64,000 bases of DNA. It comes from an uncultured Bacillales bacterium. Lineage in GTDB: Bacteria > Bacillota_I > Bacilli_A > RF39 > UBA660. Shown in pieces: positions 3,509-57,370 of the stretch (within the stretch, counting starts at the first letter, position 1; every line of letters begins with the position of its first letter). Where the stretch lies: assembly GCA_947571655.1 (NCBI GenBank), contig CANOYR010000002.1, forward strand, positions 44,212 to 108,211, given 5' to 3'. Position numbers and translations under genes: made by a program. The notes beneath the pieces were generated by a model, which was not told the DNA's origin, made no database searches, and saw only the letters and a program-made list of their open reading frames with translations.

Positions 3509-4255
3509 TCACTCTCCCGTCAAAATTTTATATCCATCTTTGGTTACAGCTACTGTATGCTCATAGTGTGCAGAGGGTTTTCCATCATCTGTTTCAATGG
3601 TCCAGTCATCATCTAAAATATAAATGTCTGCCGTTCCCAAATTTAACATTGGTTCAATCGCAATGACCATTCCCTCTTTTAGAATCGGACCTGTTCCTTT
3701 TTTTCCGTAATTTGGAACTTCAGGGTCTTCATGAACACTTGTACCCACACCATGACCTACGAGTTCTTTAACGACACCTAAGTGATATTTTTCGGCATAC
3801 TTTTCAATTGCTTCTCCGATATCACCAACTCGGTTTCCTGGTTTTACTTGTTTAATTCCCTCATATAACGCTTTTTTTGTATGCTCCATCAGATACTTTT
3901 TTTTATCATCAATTTCTCCAACTGCATACGTCCAAGCCGAATCTCCATGAAATCCTTTATAACAAGCTCCAATATCTATTTTTATAATATCACCATTTTT
4001 TAATTTTCTTTTTCCTGGAATTCCGTGAACTACTTGATTATTGATACTTGTACAAATCGCCCCCGGAAAACCACTGTAACCTTTAAAAGAAGGGGTTGCA
4101 TCTTGACTTAGAATAAATTTTTCTGCCAAGAGGTCTATCTCTTTTGTCGTAATTCCCTCTTTTATATATGGCTTTAAATATTGATGTGTGCGATAAACAA
4201 TGTTTCCCGCTTTGTTCATGAGTTCTATTTCTCTCTCACTTTTTATTATTATCAT
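3509..4255 (-). CDS. map: type I methionine aminopeptidase
   Basis: 248 aa with metal-binding residues; canonical adk-map-infA order. Confidence 0.9.
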
Positions 4256-10902: not shown

Positions 10903-11556
10903 TTAATTACCTCCTTTAGCCTTTTTTGTTGGAAGAATTTCTCCTTTATAAATCCATACTTTGACACCGATTTTTCCAAATGTTGTATCTGCTTCACTGG
11001 TTGCATAATCGATATCTGCTCTTAATGTATGTAGAGGAATTGTTCCTTCTGTATATCCTTCACTACGAGCCATATCTGCTCCACCAAGACGTCCAGATAC
11101 TAATGTTTTAATACCCTTAGCTCCTGATTTCATCGCATTACGAATTGCTCTTTTTTGTGCCATTCTGAATGATGCACGATTCGAAATTTGATTTGCGATT
11201 GAGTTCGCAACAATTTGCGCATTCATATCTGGCTTTTTAATATCTACGATAGAAATACTAATTTCTTCGTTTACTAATTTTGATAATTGTTTTTTTAATT
11301 TTTCAATTGATTCTCCACCACGACCGATGATGACACCTGGTTTTGCAGTGTGAACAATGATTTCTGTTCTTTTAGAATTTCTTTCAACTTGTACTTTGGC
11401 AATAGCTGCATCTTTTAGATTTTTTTCAAAATATTCGCGGATTTTAATGTCATTATTTAATAATCTTGAATAATCTTTTCTATCTGCATACCATTTTGAG
11501 TCCCAGTCCTTGTTGATTCCAAGTCTAAGTCCATTAGGATTCACCTTTTGACCCAT
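10903..11556 (-). CDS. rpsC: 30S ribosomal protein S3
   Basis: KH-domain S3, 217 aa. Confidence 0.95.
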
Positions 11557-47513: not shown

Positions 47514-47680
47514 TTTTTACCACCTTTCTTGTTTACTCTCACCAATATTTTTATATACAGTATTATAACACTTATTTCGACATTTTTATAGCATTTTTAC
47601 AAAAGTAATCAATGCCTTACAAAAGTAATCATTTGATTTGACATTTTTATAGATGAAAATAGTACATAATTTTTTAATAA

Positions 47681-47697
47681 CTTTTTATAAATTCTTA
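47681..47697. repeat. left copy of candidate att core direct repeat (CTTTTTATAAATTCTTA); overlaps the int stop codon
   Basis: 16/17 identity with 57304..57320. Extended similarity of ~25/28 with flanks AATAACTTTTTATAAATTCTTATATGCC versus AATTATCTTTTTATAAGTTCTTAAATGTC. Confidence 0.45.
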
Positions 47698-49011
47698 TAT
47701 GCCACTATAACTTGGTTTTACAAGGGTTTGTGGCTTTTCTTGTTTTGGAAGATTCTCACATATATTCTCATAATTTCTTATATTTTCGCTTTCAAAAGTA
47801 GTAAAAAAGTAGTAAATTTCACTTTTTAATACTCTTTCCATTTCGATCTTTGCTGATTCTGAATTTACGTGTGCGTAGTAACTTAATGTTATAAGAATAT
47901 TAGAGTGTCCCATAATATATTGTAATGCTTTTGGATTCATTCCTGAATTAGCCATTTTAGTACAGAATGTATGCCTTAGGCTATGAGGTGTTGTTTTATG
48001 TGGTAATGATTCTGTGTGGCATTCATTGTATTTAGAAACTAGACCACGAAATACGTTAGCATAATCTCTTGCTATTCTTGGAAGTCCATTTCGATTTAGA
48101 AATACAAAGTTGCTATATTCGTCAATAACAATAGATTTAATATTCTTCCTATTTGCTATAATTCGTTTTAATGCTTGAAAACACTTATCACTCATAGGTA
48201 CTTTTCTAACTCCTGCATCTGTTTTAGGTGTTTCAATGTAATAACCTTGTTTATTTTTTAATAATTGGTGATCGATATTGATTTCACGATTCGTAAAATC
48301 CAAATCTGTTTCTGTTAATCCACACAATTCAGATGCCCTTAAACCTGTTTCAAGAAATACTATTATATCGTCTACATACTTATAATAGATTTTACTATTT
48401 TTCATAAACTCTAATAAGTTATGTTCTTGTAATGGTGTAAGTGGAACTCTAGACTCTGTATCGTCGTCGATTATGTCCTTAAGTTTAAACTTAAATGGAT
48501 TCTTCCTTATGCAGTCGTCTTCTATCGCCATATAAAATATAGCTTTTAAAGACCTTTGATCGTTCTTAATGACTTGATACGGAGTACCCTTTAATTTCAT
48601 TCGTATAGCCCATTCTTTAGCATCTGACGGCTTTACATTCTCAATAGCACATACTCCAAGTTTGTCTTCTTTTAGGGATTTTAAAAGCCTTTCTCGTCCT
48701 ACTTTTGTATTATCTCGTACATTAGAGTGGATTCTGATATATTTCTCGTAAAGATCACAGACAGTCATTTTTTTACCTGTAGAGTCTATTCCATCGAATA
48801 AGTCTTTTTGTAATGCTTCTTCTTTTTCCCTTAATGATAAATCTTCTCTTTTTCCTTTTGGTAATTTATCTAGTGGTGTAAGCTTCCAAGCATACAAAAA
48901 TTTTGGCTTCCCGAAATTATCAATATATTTATAAGCATATCTTCCGTCTTTTCTTTGGCTCTCTCCATTTTGTAGTATACGTCCTTTTTTATCTCTTCTT
49001 TTTTCTGACAT
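47695..49011 (-). CDS. int: tyrosine site-specific integrase (Tn916 Int-like, with N-terminal arm-binding domain)
   Basis: C-terminal catalytic residues (R...HSLRHTF...ILITLSYY with Tyr). N-terminus KKGRILQNGESQRKDGRYAYKY is typical of the ICE/Tn916 Int N-domain. Start placed at MSEKRRD with RBS AAAGGAG. Confidence 0.85.
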   Translation of the reverse strand: MSEKRRDKKGRILQNGESQRKDGRYAYKYIDNFGKPKFLYAWKLTPLDKLPKGKREDLSLREKEEALQKDLFDGIDSTGKKMTVCDLYEKYIRIHSNVRDNTKVGRERLLKSLKEDKLGVCAIENVKPSDAKEWAIRMKLKGTPYQVIKNDQRSLKAIFYMAIEDDCIRKNPFKFKLKDIIDDDTESRVPLTPLQEHNLLEFMKNSKIYYKYVDDIIVFLETGLRASELCGLTETDLDFTNREINIDHQLLKNKQGYYIETPKTDAGVRKVPMSDKCFQALKRIIANRKNIKSIVIDEYSNFVFLNRNGLPRIARDYANVFRGLVSKYNECHTESLPHKTTPHSLRHTFCTKMANSGMNPKALQYIMGHSNILITLSYYAHVNSESAKIEMERVLKSEIYYFFTTFESENIRNYENICENLPKQEKPQTLVKPSYSGI

Positions 49012-49083
49012 ATATTTTGCTCCTTTCAATTAGAAAGAGCCTTGATATGCAATATCATTATATCACAAACAAGGCTCATTTTT

Positions 49084-49308
49084 CTATATCGCATTTAAAG
49101 AATCTATTATTTTTTCTAATTGCTTTCTTTTTATTTGAATTCGATTCCCATTCATTAGCACCCAACTAGAATTGAGATTTGCTTCTGCTAACTTGCGAAG
49201 TTTATTCTCGCCTATACGAAAATACTTTGATGCCTCTTCAATAGTAAGTGTATATTTTTCACTTATAGGAACATCATTGTTATTTGATCTATAAAATTCT
49301 TTTTGCAT
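49084..49308 (-). CDS. xis: excisionase / small HTH DNA-binding protein (Xis-like)
   Basis: 74 aa immediately upstream of int; MerR-like HTH ([20 protein letters not shown]). Start placed at the second Met for RBS spacing. Confidence 0.65.
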
Positions 49309-49336
49309 TAGAACCATTTCCTTTCATTTTAAAATT

Positions 49337-50335
49337 TTAATCATAATCAGAATTTAAGTAAGAAAATTCTCTGTATTCTTCCATAGTCATTTCTTTTGTT
49401 AAGAATTTGTCATTTTCCTTATAGTGGTAGACTATAAGATTTATTCTTCTTTTTAATTGATCGTAAGTATCACTTTTAAATAAATACATTTGTTTATATA
49501 ATACATCAGGTGGAAATATACTTGTTATATGTACTTCATTCCAAAGGCAAAAACTATTAGTGTAGCGACTATGAATCTGTGTTTTATAGCCCTCTATCAT
49601 AGTCAGAAGTAAGGTATAAGGTAGGCTTTCACTTCGTAGCTCATCCATAAAGAGTATAGGTTCTCCATTATATTTGTCTATAAAACCATTCGTATATTCA
49701 CTTACTCTGTAAATATTTTCTTCTCCATATTCTTCGGCTAATTTTATGTATGTATAACTTTTACCTGTCCCAGCCTTTCCATAATGCCAATATACTCTGA
49801 CATCTCTTTTAGGTGGAGTTTCTTTATATCTTTTTCGGTAGTATGCATCTTTAGTAATTTTTTCAAATTTTCTATATGCAAGTGATATATCAAAAATTTC
49901 ATTCGGAGTTAGACCTTGTTCGATCAATTCTTCGATAGCTTCTATGTCGTTTCGTTTTCCTTGCTTTCCTTGGATATCTCCACAATATTTTATTAAAAGT
50001 ACTTTTTCGCCTTTTTCTTCATATTTCCCACGTTTGTTTATGTAATCGTCTGCCTGTTGCTTATTTCCTTTTGTAGGCTGAATATTCATACCATTAAATA
50101 GCTTTTTGATCCCAGAGAATCTAATGCTTTTCTTATCTTCTAGTACACAATGTAGGTGTTTTAATCCCTTTGCTGAAATGCAATAAGCAACTGCACAGGT
50201 TCTTTGTGGATTATCTTTAGTCCATATTTCGATAACTTTATCTACTATTTCTTCTGGTGTACCCTCGAATCCGTGTAATTCAGGATTATTAAATTCGCAA
50301 AACCAAGATTTACTAGGCTCATTTTTAAATTCCAT
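49337..50335 (-). CDS. rep: replication initiator / relaxase-like Rep with N-terminal HUH endonuclease motifs and C-terminal SF3 helicase
   Basis: Motif I-like FCEFNN, motif II HLHCVL, motif III YINKRGK. SF3 Walker A GKAGTGKS, Walker B ILFMDEL and motif C LWNEVHITS. RBS AAGGAGG. Confidence 0.65.
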   Translation of the reverse strand: MEFKNEPSKSWFCEFNNPELHGFEGTPEEIVDKVIEIWTKDNPQRTCAVAYCISAKGLKHLHCVLEDKKSIRFSGIKKLFNGMNIQPTKGNKQQADDYINKRGKYEEKGEKVLLIKYCGDIQGKQGKRNDIEAIEELIEQGLTPNEIFDISLAYRKFEKITKDAYYRKRYKETPPKRDVRVYWHYGKAGTGKSYTYIKLAEEYGEENIYRVSEYTNGFIDKYNGEPILFMDELRSESLPYTLLLTMIEGYKTQIHSRYTNSFCLWNEVHITSIFPPDVLYKQMYLFKSDTYDQLKRRINLIVYHYKENDKFLTKEMTMEEYREFSYLNSDYD

Positions 50336-50480
50336 AGTGTTTTAACCTCCTTGTATCAACATTAGATACATCGTTTTTTTTTGATTTTTCAACGATTCAT
50401 TAGCAATTTGTATCTGTATCGAAGTCGGGGGCAATGCTAACCCCTCCTTTACGGTGGCTTTCGCTACGCTTCGCCACCGT
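50336..50480. other. structured GC-rich intergenic region between the FtsK-like and Rep genes (candidate oriT / nick site / dso)
   Basis: Hairpins CATCGTT...AACGAT, GGGGG...CCCCTCC and CGGTGGC-N14-GCCACCG (overlapping the 3' end of the upstream ORF). This island stands out in an otherwise ~25% GC element. Confidence 0.4.
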
Positions 50481-51234
50481 CTATTGGTTTTGATAATGCT
50501 TCTATACAAATTTCTTTTATACGTTCCATATCATTAACTTGTCCTATTTTGATAAAGTGTAGATCAGCACTCTGTAATAAAACTGCACCCTCGCCACGAT
50601 TAAATTCTTTCTTTTTTATTTGTTCCAAATGATCGGGCATAAGCATTTCATATATCGATTTCCCAACACCTAAAATTATAACTATTCCATAATTTAATCT
50701 CGATCCAACAGGGAAAGCCACAGCATCAGGTCGCTGACAAGAGCATACAAGCCTTATAGATTTAGACCTACCCATTAAAAGTATTTCGCTAACATCATTC
50801 ATAACTTTTTTAGCCCTTGTTTTATCTTCATTCATAAGAGCAAGTATATTTGCCATATATTCGTCCCATATAAAAGTGATAGGGTGGCGTGTCTTGTCTT
50901 TTCCTGACATTCTATCATTTAACCTATTGTGAACTATTTCCAATAACTCCGTTGTTTGTTTGAAAGAACGATAACGGGGAGTGCCACGCAAACATTCGAA
51001 CATATCGTCAGCTTTGTAATCGGCAAAATAGTATTCCCCTGACGGATCAGCCAAAATTAGCTTTGTTAGTAACCCGAATTCAGCAAATGACTTACCCGAT
51101 CCACTCATTCCCGATAATAGAATATGGGAATTTGTTCGTGGCGAAATATCAACATTTATTTCTTTTTTAATTCCAAAGTTTTTCCAATATTCCAAATCAT
51201 AGCCCAAAGTTAAGGTATTACTAGATTCTGTCAT
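50464..51234 (-). CDS. FtsK/SpoIIIE/TcpA-family DNA translocase ATPase domain protein (coupling-protein-like)
   Basis: Walker A GMSGSGKS and a downstream FtsK-like motor region. It has its own RBS AAAGGAGAA and ATG, overlapping the upstream membrane ORF by 14 nt. Confidence 0.65.
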   Translation of the reverse strand: MTESSNTLTLGYDLEYWKNFGIKKEINVDISPRTNSHILLSGMSGSGKSFAEFGLLTKLILADPSGEYYFADYKADDMFECLRGTPRYRSFKQTTELLEIVHNRLNDRMSGKDKTRHPITFIWDEYMANILALMNEDKTRAKKVMNDVSEILLMGRSKSIRLVCSCQRPDAVAFPVGSRLNYGIVIILGVGKSIYEMLMPDHLEQIKKKEFNRGEGAVLLQSADLHFIKIGQVNDMERIKEICIEALSKPIDGGEA

Positions 51235-51811
51235 CTTTTAATTCTCCTTTTGATTTAATACTTTTCTTTAAAATAAAATCAAAGTATATATATTCTTGAT
51301 CACTTTCTATTTTATCTATAATCTTGATTCCTAATTTTTGTTCTATATCTGTTCTTTTTTCTTCGTATTTAGATTCTGAAAAATCAGGAGAATAAAACTT
51401 AAAAGTGTTAATATTATTGTTAATATTGCATCTTCTTTTAAATTTTGAAACATAAATAGGTACTTTGTGATCTTCTTTTATATTGAGAACATCTTTTACG
51501 TCGTCTTCTATTTTTTTTGCTTTTTTAGGCTTTCCAAACCACGTTATAATACCAAAGGTAAAAATACCAAAAATTAACCAAAATAGAATGTAGACTAATA
51601 ATTTAAAAATATTCTTATAACTACTTGGATCATAAATAAGAATCCAAAGAAGTATTGCAATGATTATATAGAGTGAAAATATTATAAATTTTAGCTTTTT
51701 TGAAAATAGTTCTTTTATACCTTGCTTAAATCTTAATTCATTTACTTTTTGATTTCTTCTTCTGATTTGTCTTTCTTCAAAACTTAATTTATTTTGTACT
51801 TGATTCTTCAT
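51221..51811 (-). CDS. membrane protein (2 TM) likely corresponding to the N-terminal membrane anchor of an FtsK/TcpA-like protein, encoded separately
   Basis: Two TM helices followed by a Lys-rich linker. Combined length with the next ORF (196+256 aa) matches TcpA/Orf21-like proteins. Confidence 0.5.
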   Translation of the reverse strand: MKNQVQNKLSFEERQIRRRNQKVNELRFKQGIKELFSKKLKFIIFSLYIIIAILLWILIYDPSSYKNIFKLLVYILFWLIFGIFTFGIITWFGKPKKAKKIEDDVKDVLNIKEDHKVPIYVSKFKRRCNINNNINTFKFYSPDFSESKYEEKRTDIEQKLGIKIIDKIESDQEYIYFDFILKKSIKSKGELKDDRI

Positions 51812-52118
51812 ACATCTTCTCCTTTAATGCTTCCAACAGATCAGGCGATAAATCTAACTTATCAATAGAATCTGTTAAGCTATATTCTATTTTATCTATA
51901 TATGTAATGCCGATTTCTTCTTTTGCTAAAGCTAACCAAACTTCTCCCGTATCTGAATAAAAAATTTGAGCTATTTCGTTATAATTCAATATGTCATTAT
52001 CGTATATGCTGATAGTGGTATAATATTTATTAAATATAAATATGTAGTAGTCGTCATTTAACGTTATAGTTTTGTTCTTGTTTAGATCAAAAACTTCTTT
52101 TAATTGTAATAGATTCAT
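51789..52118 (-). CDS. hypothetical protein (109 aa)
   Basis: ORF with RBS AAAAGGAGAAG; overlaps the downstream gene by 23 nt; no family recognised. Confidence 0.45.
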   Translation of the reverse strand: MNLLQLKEVFDLNKNKTITLNDDYYIFIFNKYYTTISIYDNDILNYNEIAQIFYSDTGEVWLALAKEEIGITYIDKIEYSLTDSIDKLDLSPDLLEALKEKMYEESSTK

Positions 52119-52197
52119 AATTCTTCTCCTTTTAAAAATTAGTTACAGGTAGGGTGTAGCTATAAACTACACCACCTGTATACACTTTAATTTTGCA

Positions 52198-52488
52198 TTA
52201 TTTTTTGCTTGTTTCGGTAGAGCCAACGAATTCTATAAGACTAACATTTCCGTATCTATCGTAATGAAATTCTTCTACATCTCTGCCTACAAGACTTTTA
52301 ATTTCTAACGTAGTTAATTCTTTGCCAAAAGTTTTTGTTAAGACATTATACTTTACTTTAACTATTGAAACCTTAAGTCCTTCGCTTTTATCGTTATTGC
52401 CGAACTCTTCTGCACAATGAAGATTAACATTATGAAATGGATTATCTTCATATACGCCAATTCTTTCTTCAATACCTACAATTTTCAT
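52198..52488 (-). CDS. hypothetical protein (96 aa)
   Basis: ORF with RBS AAAGGAGAATAAAG; no family recognised. Confidence 0.45.
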   Translation of the reverse strand: MKIVGIEERIGVYEDNPFHNVNLHCAEEFGNNDKSEGLKVSIVKVKYNVLTKTFGKELTTLEIKSLVGRDVEEFHYDRYGNVSLIEFVGSTETSKK

Positions 52489-52585
52489 AGACTTTATTCT
52501 CCTTTCTTTAGATTTTTAAATGTTGTCGAACGATTCTCTCGCTGACACTATAGTTATAGGCGATTGTATATTTGGCTGAAAAATA

Positions 52586-52614
52586 AAGGTGTATAAATGA
52601 TACACCCTTTTTTT
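52586..52614. terminator. bidirectional terminator downstream of the sigma factor gene
   Basis: GGTGTA-TAAATGA-TACACC stem with flanking A/T runs. Confidence 0.6.
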
Positions 52615-52698
52615 ACATACAAAAAAAAGCCGTATTTTACTACAGCTTCTATTAAAATCAATAAATCAAAATACTATGATAAATAATTATTTTTTATT

Positions 52699-53973
52699 TT
52701 AGTTTTTCTTTTGTTCTTGTTTTTTCTTGCTCTTCTTTTTAGCCTGTGGATAAATATTTAAAAAATCTTTTTCTTCAATACCTAATAATTCTAATACTTT
52801 ATTACAATATTCAATAGGATATCCATTTAATTTCTCCAGAACAAAGGCATATGCAAGATGCGTCCTATTATTTTTTTTAAAACTATATCCAGCTGTATCT
52901 AGAAGTGCATTTATAGTATGACTTGATAATTTGAAGTATATACCAAAAGATACCATTGCTTTTATACTTGGTATTGCTCCCTTAGTTTTATAATATTTAA
53001 ACGTCTCTTCACTTAAATTTGTTGCTCTGCAAAACATTGATTCAGTTATATCTTTTTGTTCACAAATATTTTTAAATTGTTCTTCGAAAGTTGGATATCT
53101 TAAATTTATTGCATATTCTTCTTGAAATCTTGTTGATATATCTTTAAAGTTTTTTTCTTCTAATTTTTCATAATCTTCATATTTAGCAATTTTTTCAGTC
53201 TTTGCAGATATATCAATATTTCTCTTTTGTTTTTCAATAATATCTTTCAATAAACGATCTGTTTTTCCATTAGTTATATTATGATATTCGTCAGATTCAT
53301 AAAAATCATTAAGTTTATTGTTAATATTTTCTACTATTTTCTTAATTTTAACTCTATTAACTCCAAGCTTTTTTGCTATATTTGTATCATTCATTTCTTC
53401 TTTGTATTTAAATGTATAAATAAGTTTTTCGTGAGGATATAAAGTTTTAAAAAAAGCCTCTTTTATTAGCTGAATATCTTTTTTGTTTTCATTATCTATT
53501 GTTTGTTCTTCAGGTGTCATAGAGTTATCAGCAATAACATCAGAAAGAGTAGCATCACTTTCACTATCAATAGTACTTTCTAATGAGATATTTTGTTGTG
53601 ATAATGTTTTCAATTCAACTAATTTCTCTAATGGTATTTCTAATCTATCAGCAACCTCTTTATCAGTAGGATCACGTTTTAACTCTTGTGTTAATTCGTT
53701 TTCTACTTTTTTCATTTTATTTATTCGTTTGCTATTATAATTTGAAATACCTTTTGTTTCAGCAATATAATCTTCAATTTCCCATTTGATCCAAGGGGTG
53801 GCAAGTGTAGATATTTTAGTTCCTTTGCTTTCATCAAATTTTTCTGATGCTATCCAAAGACCATATCTTCCATAGTGTAATAAATCTTCAAATGGTACAC
53901 CATTTCCTATATATTTTTTAGCAATACTTTTAACTAACCACTCATTTTCGTTTAATATTCTTTCTTCTTCCAC
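52699..53973 (-). CDS. sigma-70 family RNA polymerase sigma factor with ~180-aa C-terminal extension (possible second HTH)
   Basis: Region 2 (DLLHYGRYGLWIASEKFDESKG), region 4 HTH (TNIAKKLGVNRVKIKK). GTG start with RBS AAGGTGGGA. C-terminal 180 aa not sigma-like. Confidence 0.65.
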   Translation of the reverse strand: MEEERILNENEWLVKSIAKKYIGNGVPFEDLLHYGRYGLWIASEKFDESKGTKISTLATPWIKWEIEDYIAETKGISNYNSKRINKMKKVENELTQELKRDPTDKEVADRLEIPLEKLVELKTLSQQNISLESTIDSESDATLSDVIADNSMTPEEQTIDNENKKDIQLIKEAFFKTLYPHEKLIYTFKYKEEMNDTNIAKKLGVNRVKIKKIVENINNKLNDFYESDEYHNITNGKTDRLLKDIIEKQKRNIDISAKTEKIAKYEDYEKLEEKNFKDISTRFQEEYAINLRYPTFEEQFKNICEQKDITESMFCRATNLSEETFKYYKTKGAIPSIKAMVSFGIYFKLSSHTINALLDTAGYSFKKNNRTHLAYAFVLEKLNGYPIEYCNKVLELLGIEEKDFLNIYPQAKKKSKKKQEQKKN

Positions 53974-54117
53974 ACAAATCCCACCTTATTTAATAATATT
54001 ATTTAACTACACAATATAAAATTTCCAATATAATTATACCATTTTTAGCCTGTTTAATATATAGTAAAACAAAAAATAATTTTGGATCATAAATTATATT
54101 CCAAAATTATTATGTTT

Positions 54118-54396
54118 TTATGCTCTGTTATTTTTATTAAGATATTTTTTATATATAGTATTTATCAACAAGTAGATACCATATAAGATTATTGAATACA
54201 ATAAACCACCGAAAACAATTATACATAAAAACATAGGATAATCATAGTTAATACCTTTTACTACTATTTCTAGTGGATTATTAGGTATTATGAAAGATAG
54301 TATACAAATTACTACAAAACCTATAACACCTAAAATTTTAAATATTTTTTCTAACATAAATTTCAACTCCTTTATTTCAAAAAATAAAAGTAGCAT
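54118..54396 (-). CDS. small membrane protein (92 aa, 3 TM)
   Basis: Hydrophobic ORF between the sigma factor and sortase genes. Confidence 0.4.
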   Translation of the reverse strand: MLLLFFEIKELKFMLEKIFKILGVIGFVVICILSFIIPNNPLEIVVKGINYDYPMFLCIIVFGGLLYSIILYGIYLLINTIYKKYLNKNNRA

Positions 54397-54452
54397 CTAA
54401 AATCTTTTAAAACTTTATAGATACTACTTTTCGTTTTAAATCATTTTATAGA

Positions 54453-55202
54453 TTATTCTAAATTTTCAACTCTTTTTGCGTGTACGACTTTTCTTTTAGA
54501 TGTTCCACCTGTACCCGAGCAAGTGGAAAGTGTAAGTATATTATCACTTGTAGATACTTCTATATCAAACTTTTTATAACTTCTTCTTGTAATGGTATCA
54601 ATAAATTTATTGAAATCACTATCACTTTTAAATGAAGTAGTTATATAATATTCTTCTTTTTCTATAATGTAATAACTAAATATTTGATAAGTCAAAAGTT
54701 CATTATCTTTATTGTATATTTGAATATAGTTATTTTCCTTTTTATCAAAAAATTCATTTTTAAATATATCTTGTAATGATCCAAACATAGTGTCGTCTAA
54801 CATTGAATGACCGAATAATACAACATTTCTATCATTAAAAGATTCATTTCGATAATCCATAAATATTGTTCCTGCCTGATTACTTTCTTTTTCAAAGGAA
54901 CGTTTAAGATAATATGAATTGTCTTTTGTATGTACAATAGGGTTGTTTATTTTATCTTGATTAAATCGTATCCAACCAATAGTATCACTATTGATAGATA
55001 ATAGTTTTTCAAAATCAATTTTAAATACTTCTTTTTCTTCTTCTATATCTATACTAATAACATTTTGGATCAATTCTTTTGTATCATTTTTATTTTTGTT
55101 AGAATCTAATAGGAATAATACAATTTTAGTAGTAGAGAATAGGAACACTACTATAAATAAAATTAGTAGAATATTTTTTGTTTTAAATTTTATTTTTTTC
55201 AT
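54453..55202 (-). CDS. srtB: class B sortase
   Basis: N-terminal TM, catalytic His (NVVLFGHSM), TLSTC active-site Cys motif and conserved Arg (KRKVVHAKR). Confidence 0.75.
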   Translation of the reverse strand: MKKIKFKTKNILLILFIVVFLFSTTKIVLFLLDSNKNKNDTKELIQNVISIDIEEEKEVFKIDFEKLLSINSDTIGWIRFNQDKINNPIVHTKDNSYYLKRSFEKESNQAGTIFMDYRNESFNDRNVVLFGHSMLDDTMFGSLQDIFKNEFFDKKENNYIQIYNKDNELLTYQIFSYYIIEKEEYYITTSFKSDSDFNKFIDTITRRSYKKFDIEVSTSDNILTLSTCSGTGGTSKRKVVHAKRVENLE

Positions 55203-55227
55203 TACTTTAAATAGAAAGAAATAGCAA

Positions 55228-56469
55228 CTAGGCTATTTCCTTTTTCTTCTTACTAACTAGAATATAAGTAATTCCTACTAAAGATCCAAGAGCTAATATA
55301 GAATATAATACAATGTCTATAGAAGAAGTTTGAGCATTGTTTGGTGCTTTATTTACGTTTTCAGTAGTAATAGTTTCATTATCACTTAAAGCTATCATAA
55401 ATGGAGAAAGCTCACTAACTGATATTTCTGCTTTTCCGTCTGTTATTGCTGTTTTAAATATTTCATAAGTATTGTCTTTCTTTTTATGTAATATTTGAAC
55501 TTCCTTACCATTGTAATTACTTCCAAGATTAAATGATATTTTCATATTGTTAGTAGTTGTTCCATAAGCTGTTAATTCATAACAACCTAAAATATTTTTA
55601 AAACCTTTACTTTCTAATTCTTTTGCCATAGTTTTGTAAATTTCGTCATCAGTTTCTAATTTAGCCATATTAACAGGTGTTCCATTTTCTAATGTTGTTC
55701 CATAAGCACCCATATTCATAATATGTTTTATATCATATAGAACATTATTTTTATAGAAGTATAAAATATATCCAACTCCCCAAGGTGTTCCTCCACCTAT
55801 GCCACCAACACCAGTTGTACCTTTAATAGTTATAGAACTATCATTGAATAGTTTATTGAAATTGTATGTATTTTCAGTCCATTTACTAGCATTTTCTTCG
55901 TCACCTATATTATACATTGTAAAAACTGCGTCCGTACCTTCAAAATTTGCAAACTTAATATTATTTACTGCATTTTTAATATATGTTGCATCTTGTTCAC
56001 TATAAGCACTTTCTTTAGCATATTTGATAGTGAATTCTTTTCCATAATTTGATCCGTTTATTCCAATACTTCCATTGTCAATAAATCCAATTCCACCACC
56101 TAAATCACAACCTGTTAAAAATTCAGAAGTGGATACATTAGTTATTCCATTTTGATTAAATATTTCCATAAACTTTTCTTCTAATGCTTTTTGAACAATA
56201 TCTTCTTCATCTGTTTGAAAATTTGTTCTTGTAATATAATTTGCATATTCTGTTTTAGTGATATTTATTTCAATAGTATTTGGAATAATGTTGTTTAATT
56301 CTTCCTCTGTTAAGTCTTTTAAACTTTTTGTTGTAGTAGTTTCTTGTGCTACTTGATTTGTTTGACTTTCGCTAGGTGTAGGTGTAAGTTCTTCTGCATT
56401 AACTGTCATAGTAAAAAACATACTAGATATTGCTAGTGCTGATAATAAAATTTTACTTGTTTTCTTCAT
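55228..56469 (-). CDS. secreted cell-wall-anchored surface protein with noncanonical C-terminal sorting signal (NAQTS + TM + KKKK tail)
   Basis: Signal peptide MKKTSKILLSALAISSMFFTMTVNA. C-terminal NNAQTSS followed by a hydrophobic segment and SKKKKEIA; sits adjacent to the class B sortase. Confidence 0.6.
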   Translation of the reverse strand: MKKTSKILLSALAISSMFFTMTVNAEELTPTPSESQTNQVAQETTTTKSLKDLTEEELNNIIPNTIEINITKTEYANYITRTNFQTDEEDIVQKALEEKFMEIFNQNGITNVSTSEFLTGCDLGGGIGFIDNGSIGINGSNYGKEFTIKYAKESAYSEQDATYIKNAVNNIKFANFEGTDAVFTMYNIGDEENASKWTENTYNFNKLFNDSSITIKGTTGVGGIGGGTPWGVGYILYFYKNNVLYDIKHIMNMGAYGTTLENGTPVNMAKLETDDEIYKTMAKELESKGFKNILGCYELTAYGTTTNNMKISFNLGSNYNGKEVQILHKKKDNTYEIFKTAITDGKAEISVSELSPFMIALSDNETITTENVNKAPNNAQTSSIDIVLYSILALGSLVGITYILVSKKKKEIA

Positions 56470-56548
56470 TTTTTATCTTCCTTTCTAACATATAAAATTT
56501 TTATTTATATAATAAATATTCGTAAAGAATATTATTACCATAAAATAA

Positions 56549-56653
56549 GGAACACTATAAACTTCCTTTGTGTTCCGATACTGCTATTGTTGGATTAACT
56601 GCATACTGCTCCCAACAATATTACAACACCGGTTATAGACACTTCACTAACCG
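56549..56653. other. cluster of three distinct GC-rich stem-loops in the divergent intergenic region between the surface-protein gene and the XRE gene (candidate sso/oriT or small RNA)
   Basis: GGAACAC-N14-GTGTTCC, ATTGTTGG-N18-CCAACAAT and CGGTTA-N12-TAACCG, with no T-runs; locally high GC. Confidence 0.35.
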
Positions 56654-56790
56654 ATAATAAGATTCTACCACTTTTATTTTATATAGTCAACATTTTTACT
56701 GATATTTTATCAGTTTATAATCAATACTAATTTTAGTGATAATAGTTCATAATAAAATAGAAGTTAGTTCTATAAAAAAGGAGTGGTGTT

Positions 56791-57099
56791 ATGAGAGTTA
56801 AACAAACAGAAGAAGACAAAATAATTTTAAAAATAATTGGCAATAATATCAAATTTTATAGAATAAATAATAATTGTTCAAGTGAAAATACAGACGAATA
56901 TGGAAGAATCAGTCAAGAAAAACTAGCCGAATTATCAGGAACTAGTGCATCTATGATCGCCAATTTAGAAGCAACTAATGTTATGCAAACTATGAGCATT
57001 GTTCTTTTGAGAAAAATTGCACTTGCTTTAAATATTCCTTTATATGCTTTCTTTTTAGAAAAGCCAATTAAAAATCCACCAATAAATCCTTTTGAATAA
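56791..57099 (+). CDS. XRE-family HTH transcriptional regulator
   Basis: HTH_3 (KLAELSGTSASMIANLE), 102 aa, RBS GGAGTGG. Confidence 0.7.
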   Translation: MRVKQTEEDKIILKIIGNNIKFYRINNNCSSENTDEYGRISQEKLAELSGTSASMIANLEATNVMQTMSIVLLRKIALALNIPLYAFFLEKPIKNPPINPFE

Positions 57100-57104
57100 A
57101 AAAA

Positions 57105-57137
57105 GAAAACGATTAGTAAATTACTAGTCGTTTTACT
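57105..57137 (+). terminator. terminator downstream of the XRE gene
   Basis: ACGATTAGTAA...TTACTAGTCGT stem followed by TTTACTTT. Confidence 0.5.
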
Positions 57138-57303
57138 TTGCATTATATTTTTAATTGCATACCTAGGCTCTTTGTTAAAAATCTTTATAAAGTAGTAAAT
57201 TAGTAGTAAATTCACTACTGTTTTATTGATTTATGCCTTATAATAAAGGCTTTTTTGGTTATTTATACTTTTTTTAGTCAAAAATAGTGTAATTTTTAAT
57301 TAT

Positions 57304-57320
57304 CTTTTTATAAGTTCTTA
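57304..57320. repeat. right copy of candidate att core direct repeat (CTTTTTATAAGTTCTTA)
   Basis: See the left copy. Preceded inside the element by a tandem AGTAGTAAATT direct repeat (57192..57216), possible arm-type sites. Confidence 0.45.
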
Positions 57321-57370
57321 AATGTCATTATAACCTCGTATAATGTAGTTAAGATATTTTTATTTTAAAA

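Follow-up and report, generated by a model that had tools for sequence, protein, structure and literature searches.

A class B sortase cassette and an extended sigma factor on a small integrative element of an uncultured Bacillales bacterium

The stretch of DNA analysed here, hereafter the window, comprises 64,000 nucleotides (nt) from an uncultured gut bacterium of the Bacillales (contig CANOYR010000002.1). On its minus strand lie, in order of transcription, genes for a secreted surface protein with a C-terminal sorting signal, a class B sortase (SrtB), a 92-residue membrane protein and a sigma-70-family protein with a long C-terminal extension. The same strand continues with two genes that we call o96 and o109, then with genes for a 196-residue membrane protein, a 256-residue FtsK-like ATPase, a 332-residue Rep-like protein, an excisionase (Xis) and an integrase (Int). 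A preliminary description had placed the sortase and its neighbour downstream of the sigma factor; they are upstream of it, with the single small gene of 92 codons in between. The reading that we favour, and hold to be reasonably probable, is that this region forms the regulatory and cargo end of a ~9.6-kb element with a Tn916-type integrase, in which the sortase cassette is self-contained and the sigma factor is a separate regulator belonging to the element backbone.

The surface protein (413 residues; 55228..56469, minus strand) begins with a signal peptide (MKKTSKILLSALAISSMFFTMTVNA|EE) and, read from its translation, carries NNAQTSS at residues 377-383, a hydrophobic stretch and a KKKK tail, all as the preliminary description had it; the sorting-signal peptide of its C-terminal region is KAPNNAQTSSID. 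The NNAQTSS codons occupy positions 55321..55341 of the minus strand, and cleavage is predicted after Thr381. No other protein among the 95 open reading frames (ORFs) of at least 80 residues in the window combines a sortase-type motif with a C-terminal hydrophobic segment and a basic tail. We found no family for this protein in Pfam, NCBIfam or PHROGs and no sequence match in the PDB. Its AlphaFold2 model has a mean predicted local distance difference test (pLDDT) score of 80.5, with block means above 90 over most of residues 50-360, and a Foldseek comparison with the PDB and BFVD returned nothing meaningful (template modelling score <=0.18).

We collected 93 homologues of the surface protein, whose C-termini fall into two groups. 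Members of the first end in NNAQTSS, with the rare variants NNPQTSS, NNADTSS, NNAQTGS and NNAQTAS, and members of the second carry [DE][ET]P[KPY]TG; in both, the motif precedes a hydrophobic segment and a basic tail. Homologues as distant as ~32% identity retain NNAQT[SGA]S amid a freely varying linker. Published class B signals include NPQTN, NPKSS/NAKTN and (S/P)PxTG (PMC8225981), and NNAQTSS fits this range. In no searchable paper did we find the NNAQTSS spelling together with the word sortase.

The sortase (249 residues; 54453..55202, minus strand) has an N-terminal membrane anchor and scores 201.6 bits against TIGR03064, for a cut-off of 153.75, in agreement with its earlier designation as SrtB-type. 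It matches the solved SrtB of Bacillus anthracis (1rz2) with an E-value of 7e-41 and with the catalytic motifs aligned; His130 (FGH), Cys226 (TLSTC) and Arg237 line up with SrtB of B. anthracis, Clostridioides difficile and Staphylococcus aureus. A scan of one genome per species provided 35 loci (loci and proteins related to those of the window are designated below by L and P numbers). The sortase gene lies 10-154 nt 3' of the surface-protein gene in nearly all of these, and the adjacent sortases from related loci that were tested against TIGR03064 are all class B (7 of 7).

The two C-terminal groups differ in the enzyme that accompanies them. All 17 distinct NNAQTSS substrates adjoin an SrtB that is 46-100% identical to the window enzyme, whereas all 11 distinct xPxTG substrates adjoin another SrtB lineage, 26-33% identical to it, and there is no exception to this pairing in 28 distinct pairs, which are related by descent. 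Motif and enzyme thus switch together, as expected of a cognate pair, and comparative genomics supports the view that the surface protein and SrtB are very probably such a pair. The view of NNAQTSS as a class-B-type signal, put forward in the preliminary description, therefore stands, on its conservation down to ~32% identity and on its covariation with the adjacent sortase lineage. Could the C-terminal helix nevertheless be all that holds the protein, in the membrane, with NNAQTSS a conserved linker and the sortase serving other substrates? Paralogues exist that have no motif and retain a transmembrane segment and a KKK tail, by the cassette in L032 and also as P0194 and P0199, and the surface protein does not reach the curated sorting-signal models (15.5 against a cut-off of 15.9 for TIGR01167; 11.7 against 18.15 for TIGR03063, srtB_target). 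A linker role, however, fits poorly with a motif that is nearly invariant amid freely variable flanks and that follows the sortase lineage in 28 of 28 pairs, and the window contains no other candidate substrate. We consider membrane anchoring alone very unlikely.

Two side observations concern the same protein family. Several diverged homologues of the xPKTG type (P0161, P0164, P0180, P0187 and P0201) share a 1-nt insertion at the sorting-signal codons, ACA-C-GGT instead of ACA-GGx, with sites in L028 (~11000-11060), L029 and L034 (~3640-3720). The called ORF then ends in ...EPKTRC..., with the transmembrane segment and a KFKK tail intact in the next frame. Given that the insertion recurs with the tail left intact, these genes may undergo programmed frameshifting or phase variation, switching their products between a secreted and an anchored form. 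In L032 (9326-14213), an NNAQTSS substrate and its SrtB are followed by two motif-less paralogues that retain the transmembrane anchor, which suggests that wall-anchored and membrane-anchored versions of one protein family are encoded side by side.

The sigma-70-family protein (424 residues; 52699..53973, minus strand) consists of predicted regions 2-4 (53964-53293) and an extension (53292-52702) with a helix-turn-helix (HTH) core at 53094-52774. It had been credited with sigma regions 2 and 4, about 180 extra C-terminal residues and a possible second HTH. Region 2 is recognised by Pfam (Sigma70_r2, PF04542, 2e-11), as is region 3 (Sigma70_r3, PF04539, 5.8e-19). For region 4 the signals differ: residues 4-223 align to positions 3-226 of the 238 positions of TIGR02393 (RpoD_Cterm), and the family profile aligns with solved SigA chains over residues 4-227, region 4.2 HTH included (E-value 1.9e-47). 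By Pfam (Sigma70_r4, PF04545) it is not significant in the window protein, against 4.8e-10 in the homologue P0216. None of the cut-offs for named sigma subfamilies (RpoD, SigB/F/G, FliA/WhiG, RpoS) is reached, the best scores being 131.8 for a cut-off of 354, 103.8 for 234 and 100.4 for 190. Within region 2.3 of the window protein, Leu and Pro replace consensus aromatic residues (STLATPW versus STYATYW in the family).

The extension spans residues ~228-424, which makes it ~197 residues long rather than 180, and its conservation equals or exceeds that of the sigma half. A profile search of the extension gave partial support for the second HTH: HTH_26 matches 10 of 13 family members (best 3.8e-5), the window copy alone giving an E-value of 0.11. 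The family profile of the extension also matches the XRE-type protein 3op9 (E-value 0.022), and AlphaFold2 predicts a confident helical domain at residues ~290-400 (pLDDT 84-91). We conclude that a second HTH, probably of the Cro/C1 type, is real, though weak by sequence. With the sigma model as query, Foldseek matched only sigma factors and nothing for the extension, and NCBIfam gave nothing usable for the extension alone or for its standalone homologues.

How widespread is this architecture? Full-length relatives form ~29 clusters at 90% identity, almost all metagenomic, which keep the whole sigma part at 46-80% identity; no full-length match occurs in 72,556 plasmid or 50,697 phage records. 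When the extension alone was searched against 1.84 billion representative proteins, 122 clusters at 50% identity matched, only four of them sigma fusions. These relatives are mostly standalone proteins of 135-180 residues, a few being fused to ImmA/IrrE-type peptidases or a CHAT protease, and the domain is found as a standalone protein of ~140 residues at the equivalent position in other elements. A literature search returned no relevant paper on mobile elements whose sigma factor bears an XRE extension. The sigma-XRE fusion is thus real and rare, and undescribed as far as we searched. As a side observation, the extension HTH sits at the C-terminus of the ImmA/IrrE-type metallopeptidases P0272, P0328 and P0331 (Peptidase_M78) and of the CHAT protease P0325, which ties it to the repressor-cleavage switches of mobile elements.

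These data bear on whether the fusion works as a sigma factor at all. It might instead be an XRE-type repressor or immunity protein, or a decoy for RNA polymerase, with a degenerate sigma part. An extension better conserved than the sigma half would fit such a role, as would its existence as a standalone regulator or as a partner of ImmA/IrrE-type peptidases in repressor switches, the loss of region 2.3 aromatics in the window copy and the lack of a significant Pfam region 4 there. However, regions 2.1-2.2, which bind the core enzyme, region 3 and region 4.2 align well with solved primary sigma factors, at the E-value of 1.9e-47 given above, and the ~29 full-length members retain the whole sigma part. 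A non-sigma role therefore seems improbable to us.

All these genes lie within an integrative element (47655..57274, ~9.62 kb, no strand assigned), inserted between ftsE and a YitT-family gene. Two contigs from metagenome-assembled genomes, L013 and L014, are 99.9-100% identical to the window until position 57274/57283 and diverge completely beyond it, and similarity to a related element, L005, is lost at 47655, which marks the left end. Three different right-hand flanks join at 57274-57283. Together, the divergence of L013 and L014 and the limit of homology with L005 place the element at ~47655-57274 and imply at least three different insertion sites, all AT-rich. The exact sequences of the sigma factor, the surface protein and SrtB were found on 56, 49 and 57 contigs, respectively, versus three for the host FtsE, which fits a circulating element. 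The preliminary assignment of these genes to a mobile element is thereby borne out, by the Int/Xis, Rep-like and FtsK-like genes and by the different flanks in L013 and L014. The chromosomal flanks hold ftsE, ftsX and a gene for a PcsB-like M23 peptidoglycan hydrolase on one side, and two YitT-family genes and prfB on the other; the presence of FtsEX and of the hydrolase indicates that the host has a cell wall.

The backbone genes, all on the minus strand, end with a Tn916-type tyrosine integrase (47695..49029; PF02920 2.3e-32, PF00589 1.1e-34), preceded by a Tn916-type excisionase (49084..49317; PF09035 1.7e-16). Upstream of these, the Rep-like protein (332 residues; 49337..50335) contains a superfamily-3 helicase domain (PF00910, 1.7e-05) and is a putative rolling-circle initiator or relaxase, with a match to PF02407 (Viral_Rep) of 0.0046, under the cut-off. 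The P-loop ATPase of the FtsK/TraB kind (256 residues; 50464..51234), a putative DNA translocase or coupling protein, matches phrog_1358 (FtsK/SpoIIIE-like) at 2.7e-10 and NF041214 (TraB) at 3e-05, far under the cut-off. Its start is overlapped by the gene for the 196-residue membrane protein (51221..51811); o109 (51789..52118) and o96 (52198..52488) are backbone genes of unknown function, the latter 56-95% identical in L001, L002, L005 and L025. Apart from the Rep-like initiator and the small ATPase, the ORF inventory of the element contains no transfer genes and, in particular, no mating-pore genes; the element is probably mobilizable. The idea of a prophage or satellite was rejected: the element lacks structural and packaging genes, and its only PHROGs matches are to families of sigma, FtsK-like, excisionase and HTH proteins.

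At the opposite end, an XRE-type HTH gene (102 residues; 56791..57099, plus strand; HTH_19 1e-05, HTH_3 1.5e-04) diverges from the operon and is the probable repressor of the element; small divergent HTH genes are found 5' of the surface-protein gene in many loci. Tandem AAAGTAGTAAATT repeats occur at both ends, at 57188..57212 (plus strand) and 47794-47818, and are probably arm-type sites at which the Tn916-type integrase binds through its N-terminal domain. Matching repeats were also seen at the ends of the related elements L014, L015 and L025. A 50-nt repeat (47667-47716 and 57290-57339, 82% identical) was considered as attL/attR and rejected, because L013, L014 and L005 place the ends at ~47655 and ~57274; its copy on the right belongs to the flanking chromosome and resembles the end of the element.

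The gene between the cassette and the sigma factor encodes a two-helix membrane protein (92 residues; 54118..54396, minus strand) with homologues in L002-L004 (57% identity) and L025 (37%) and no family match in Pfam, NCBIfam or PHROGs. A small two-helix membrane protein is kept between the leader or cassette and the sigma factor in several elements (at 8861-9082 in L002). The Rep-like protein (49337-50335, minus strand) deserves a remark of its own, as it joins a weak Viral_Rep (HUH-type) match to a superfamily-3 helicase domain in an integrated bacterial element. This pairing recalls the Reps of small single-stranded DNA viruses. Viral_Rep-related initiators are included among the non-canonical relaxases of integrative mobilizable elements (IMEs) (PMC5704250).

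Comparison of related loci separates the sigma factor from the cassette. The sigma gene heads a conserved backbone (sigma, o96, o109 in some cases, membrane protein, FtsK-like, Rep, Xis, recombinase) that is present in L001, L002-L004, L005-L006, L008, L009-L012 and L025. Upstream of it, L001, L002 and L005 have other genes and no sortase cassette, and L008 has genes of opposite orientation immediately upstream; the upstream sequence in L009-L012 is too short to judge. Conversely, the cassette is found on other backbones, with a different Rep in L015 and L018 and a 61%-identical integrase in L024; L015 and L018 carry a standalone extension-type HTH protein in place of the sigma factor. Among the cassette loci found, cassette and sigma fusion occur together only in L014, which is the same element, and in L025. 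As a side observation, L005 (8377-14652) and the window (53973-47695) form a mosaic: FtsK-like, Rep and Xis are 100% identical and Int 98.6%, versus 62% for the sigma factor, and L005 has no cassette. Recombination or rapid divergence has here been focused on the sigma gene.

The cassette is preceded by a predicted early promoter of the housekeeping type (56662..56690, minus strand; TTGACT-17-TGgTAGAAT, 10 of 12 matches with TG in a promoter scan), which is kept in the window and in L015, L016, L018, L024, L025 and L030. A structured 5' leader RNA of ~150 nt follows (56508..56661, minus strand), made of three hairpins, the third terminator-like (56576-56549), and an AT-rich palindrome (56536-56511). 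Its minimum free energy is -43.9 kcal/mol (z -3.94), and the third hairpin with its U-run looks like an attenuator. We built a covariance model, R1, from six leaders; it also matches L002 (1e-6) and L017. Copies of the leader lie at 8720-8847 in L002, 7899-8043 in L015, 9798-9944 in L018 and 600-751 in L024. The L002 copy precedes a gene of the 92-residue type with no sortase cassette, so the leader belongs to the early region of the element. In an alignment fitted to the covariance model, which favours structure, 96.3% of cells are paired, and 13 pairs show double changes, versus 2.6 in shuffles and 1-3 in slid controls. The leader has no Rfam match, nor does any Rfam family match elsewhere in the element. 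It is a candidate for a new attenuator or riboregulator acting on the early operons of mobile elements.

Different signals are associated with the sigma factor. Its gene has a putative extended -10 of its own (TGGTATAAT; 54033..54041, minus strand), invariant across seven elements, some without a cassette. On its 3' side are two hairpins resembling intrinsic terminators (52585..52650, minus strand: 52650-52625 and 52609-52585), the first kept in 7 of 7 aligned loci. Beyond them, 5' of o96, comes a conserved 28-nt box, AATCGCCTATAACyATArTGTCAGCGAG (52538..52565, minus strand), with a core that is invariant in seven loci. The box occurs once in the window, for 0 occurrences expected by chance. 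Its core pattern has one match each in L002-L004, L008-L012 and L025 and none in cassette loci lacking the fusion; L001 and L005 have a variant spelling that the exact pattern misses. The box may be a sigma-dependent promoter or operator. A promoter motif common to the upstream regions of o96 and the surface-protein gene was sought and rejected: the 28-nt box is unique in the window, and its 8-nt core is not enriched.

Does the sigma factor then transcribe the operon of the surface protein and its sortase, as the preliminary description proposed, the protein serving as a mating adhesin for donor-recipient contact? Cassette and sigma factor lie on the same strand of a single element, the stretch from the 92-residue gene to the sigma gene yielded no terminator, and the arrangement is shared by L025, where the sigma factor is only 51% identical. 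An extension-type regulator, fused or standalone, lies 0.6-1.3 kb 3' of srtB in L015, L016, L018, L027 and L028, and adhesins are a recognised step of conjugation (PMC5704250). However, the sigma gene is downstream of the operon, the housekeeping-type cassette promoter is kept in L015, L016, L018 and L024, which all lack the sigma domain, and the sigma-linked box is not upstream of the surface-protein gene. Most backbone copies have no cassette and most cassettes no sigma factor; the surface protein has no recognisable adhesin fold, and the element no mating-pore genes. We consider a sigma-driven adhesin improbable, and an adhesin or mating role for the protein is itself unsupported. Control of the surface protein by the element, the broader part of the earlier proposal, remains plausible; control by the sigma factor is unsupported, given the cassette's own housekeeping-type promoter, the downstream position of the sigma gene, the separable modules and a box located only between the sigma gene and o96.

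We thus return to the favoured reading, that of a self-contained cassette and a sigma factor belonging to the backbone. The surface protein would be exported via its signal peptide and kept in the membrane by the KKKK tail and the hydrophobic stretch before it; the SrtB encoded with it would next cut NNAQT|SS after Thr381 and join the protein to peptidoglycan. Since the sortase is carried along, anchoring would be independent of the sortases of a new host. The cassette would be part of an early transcription unit, with its housekeeping-type promoter and its ~150-nt leader with a terminator hairpin, facing the divergent XRE gene; on this basis, its expression probably depends on attenuation and on the element repressor rather than on the sigma factor. 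The XRE-controlled promoter and the attenuator would drive the cassette and the 92-residue gene, perhaps with read-through into the sigma gene. The most likely place of the sigma factor in the cascade is one step further on, where it would bring host RNA polymerase to the conserved box past the two terminators for transcription from o96 through Rep, Xis and Int. Through its Cro/C1-type extension, it could gain another DNA contact or a means of control.

Several points weigh against this reading. The surface protein stays below both curated sorting-signal models, and the 28 motif/sortase pairs, related by descent, are not independent events. The arrangement of cassette and sigma factor recurs in the diverged L025. 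With no terminator between the 92-residue gene and the sigma gene, the two modules may be co-transcribed, and a feedback loop is possible. The replaced aromatics of region 2.3 make the promoter-melting ability of the window sigma factor uncertain, and the Rep and FtsK assignments are weak, below curated cut-offs. Finally, all promoters, terminators and cleavage sites were assigned from sequence alone.

A bolder scenario would arrange these parts as a timed programme. The leader RNA would gate the early operon; the surface protein, with a new fold and a private SrtB acting at NNAQT|SS, would serve transfer contact or exclusion; and the sigma factor, tethered to an operator-binding or protease-sensitive XRE module, would switch on replication, transfer and excision. 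We regard this programme as speculative and improbable.

By carrying a private sortase along with the wall-anchored protein that it serves, a mobile cassette would enable an element to modify the surface of whatever walled host it enters; this bears on the exchange of colonisation or contact factors among gut Bacillota. The two covarying pairs of SrtB and signal, NNAQTSS and xPKTG, constitute a natural test of class B sortase specificity, and their enzymes might serve as orthogonal tools for protein ligation. Among the regulators of mobile elements, a sigma factor fused to an XRE-type domain represents an uncharacterised architecture. Current understanding is not overturned; each part extends a known kind.

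A comparable layout is that of Tn916, whose regulatory region comprises the divergent XRE-like orf9, the sigma-like orf7 and orf8, followed by xis and int, with transcription attenuation upstream. The two elements share integrase and excisionase families, and both have an HTH gene in divergent orientation, a terminator-containing leader and, upstream of xis-int, a regulator resembling a sigma factor. Orf7, however, is a short sigma-like protein, whereas the protein described here is a full sigma factor with predicted regions 2, 3 and 4 fused to an XRE-type domain. Covalently attached C-terminal domains are found in ECF41 and ECF42, two groups of extracytoplasmic function (ECF) sigma factors with fused regulatory extensions, and the extension may likewise modulate sigma activity here. 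Unlike these, our protein has a region 3, as in sigma factors of groups 1-3, and its extension is an HTH of the DNA-binding type instead of a SnoaL-like or TPR domain.

Certain IMEs of Firmicutes combine a relaxase of the rolling-circle Rep type with a TcpA/FtsK-like coupling protein (PMC5704250). The present element resembles them in being small and integrated and in lacking a mating pore, and its recombinase, Rep-like protein and FtsK-related ATPase have counterparts there. It differs in its weak Rep and ATPase matches, in an ATPase of only 256 residues and in having no known transfer or helper element; the passages of that review that we consulted mention no sigma-HTH fusion in the lead position.

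The cassette itself is reminiscent of the SrtB operons of S. aureus (NPQTN), B. anthracis and Listeria monocytogenes (NPKSS/NAKTN), where the sortase lies beside its own substrate and the signal is of a non-LPXTG, N-x-x-T/S type (PMC8225981). Here too, a class B sortase, with 1rz2 as its best solved relative, adjoins its own substrate with an N-x-x-T/S-type signal. In contrast to these iron-uptake operons, the present substrate comes from an uncharacterised family and lacks NEAT and haem-uptake domains, and the pair is cargo of a mobile element rather than a chromosomal locus. In C. difficile, a class B sortase anchors CD0386 and CD3392, which are borne by the conjugative transposons CTn1 and CTn7 (PMC5569036). 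The surface protein of the window is likewise encoded on a mobile element, with predicted class B anchoring, and a sister branch of its family has xPKTG-type signals that resemble the (S/P)PxTG of C. difficile, beside the second SrtB lineage. However, the C. difficile sortase is chromosomal and only its substrates are mobile, whereas enzyme and substrate travel together here, and the sorting motif differs. The locus is thus a variant of familiar kinds, namely SrtB operons, mobile SrtB substrates and small integrative elements of the Tn916 type, to which it adds three undescribed details: an NNAQTSS signal with a private sortase, a sigma-XRE fusion and a leader RNA.

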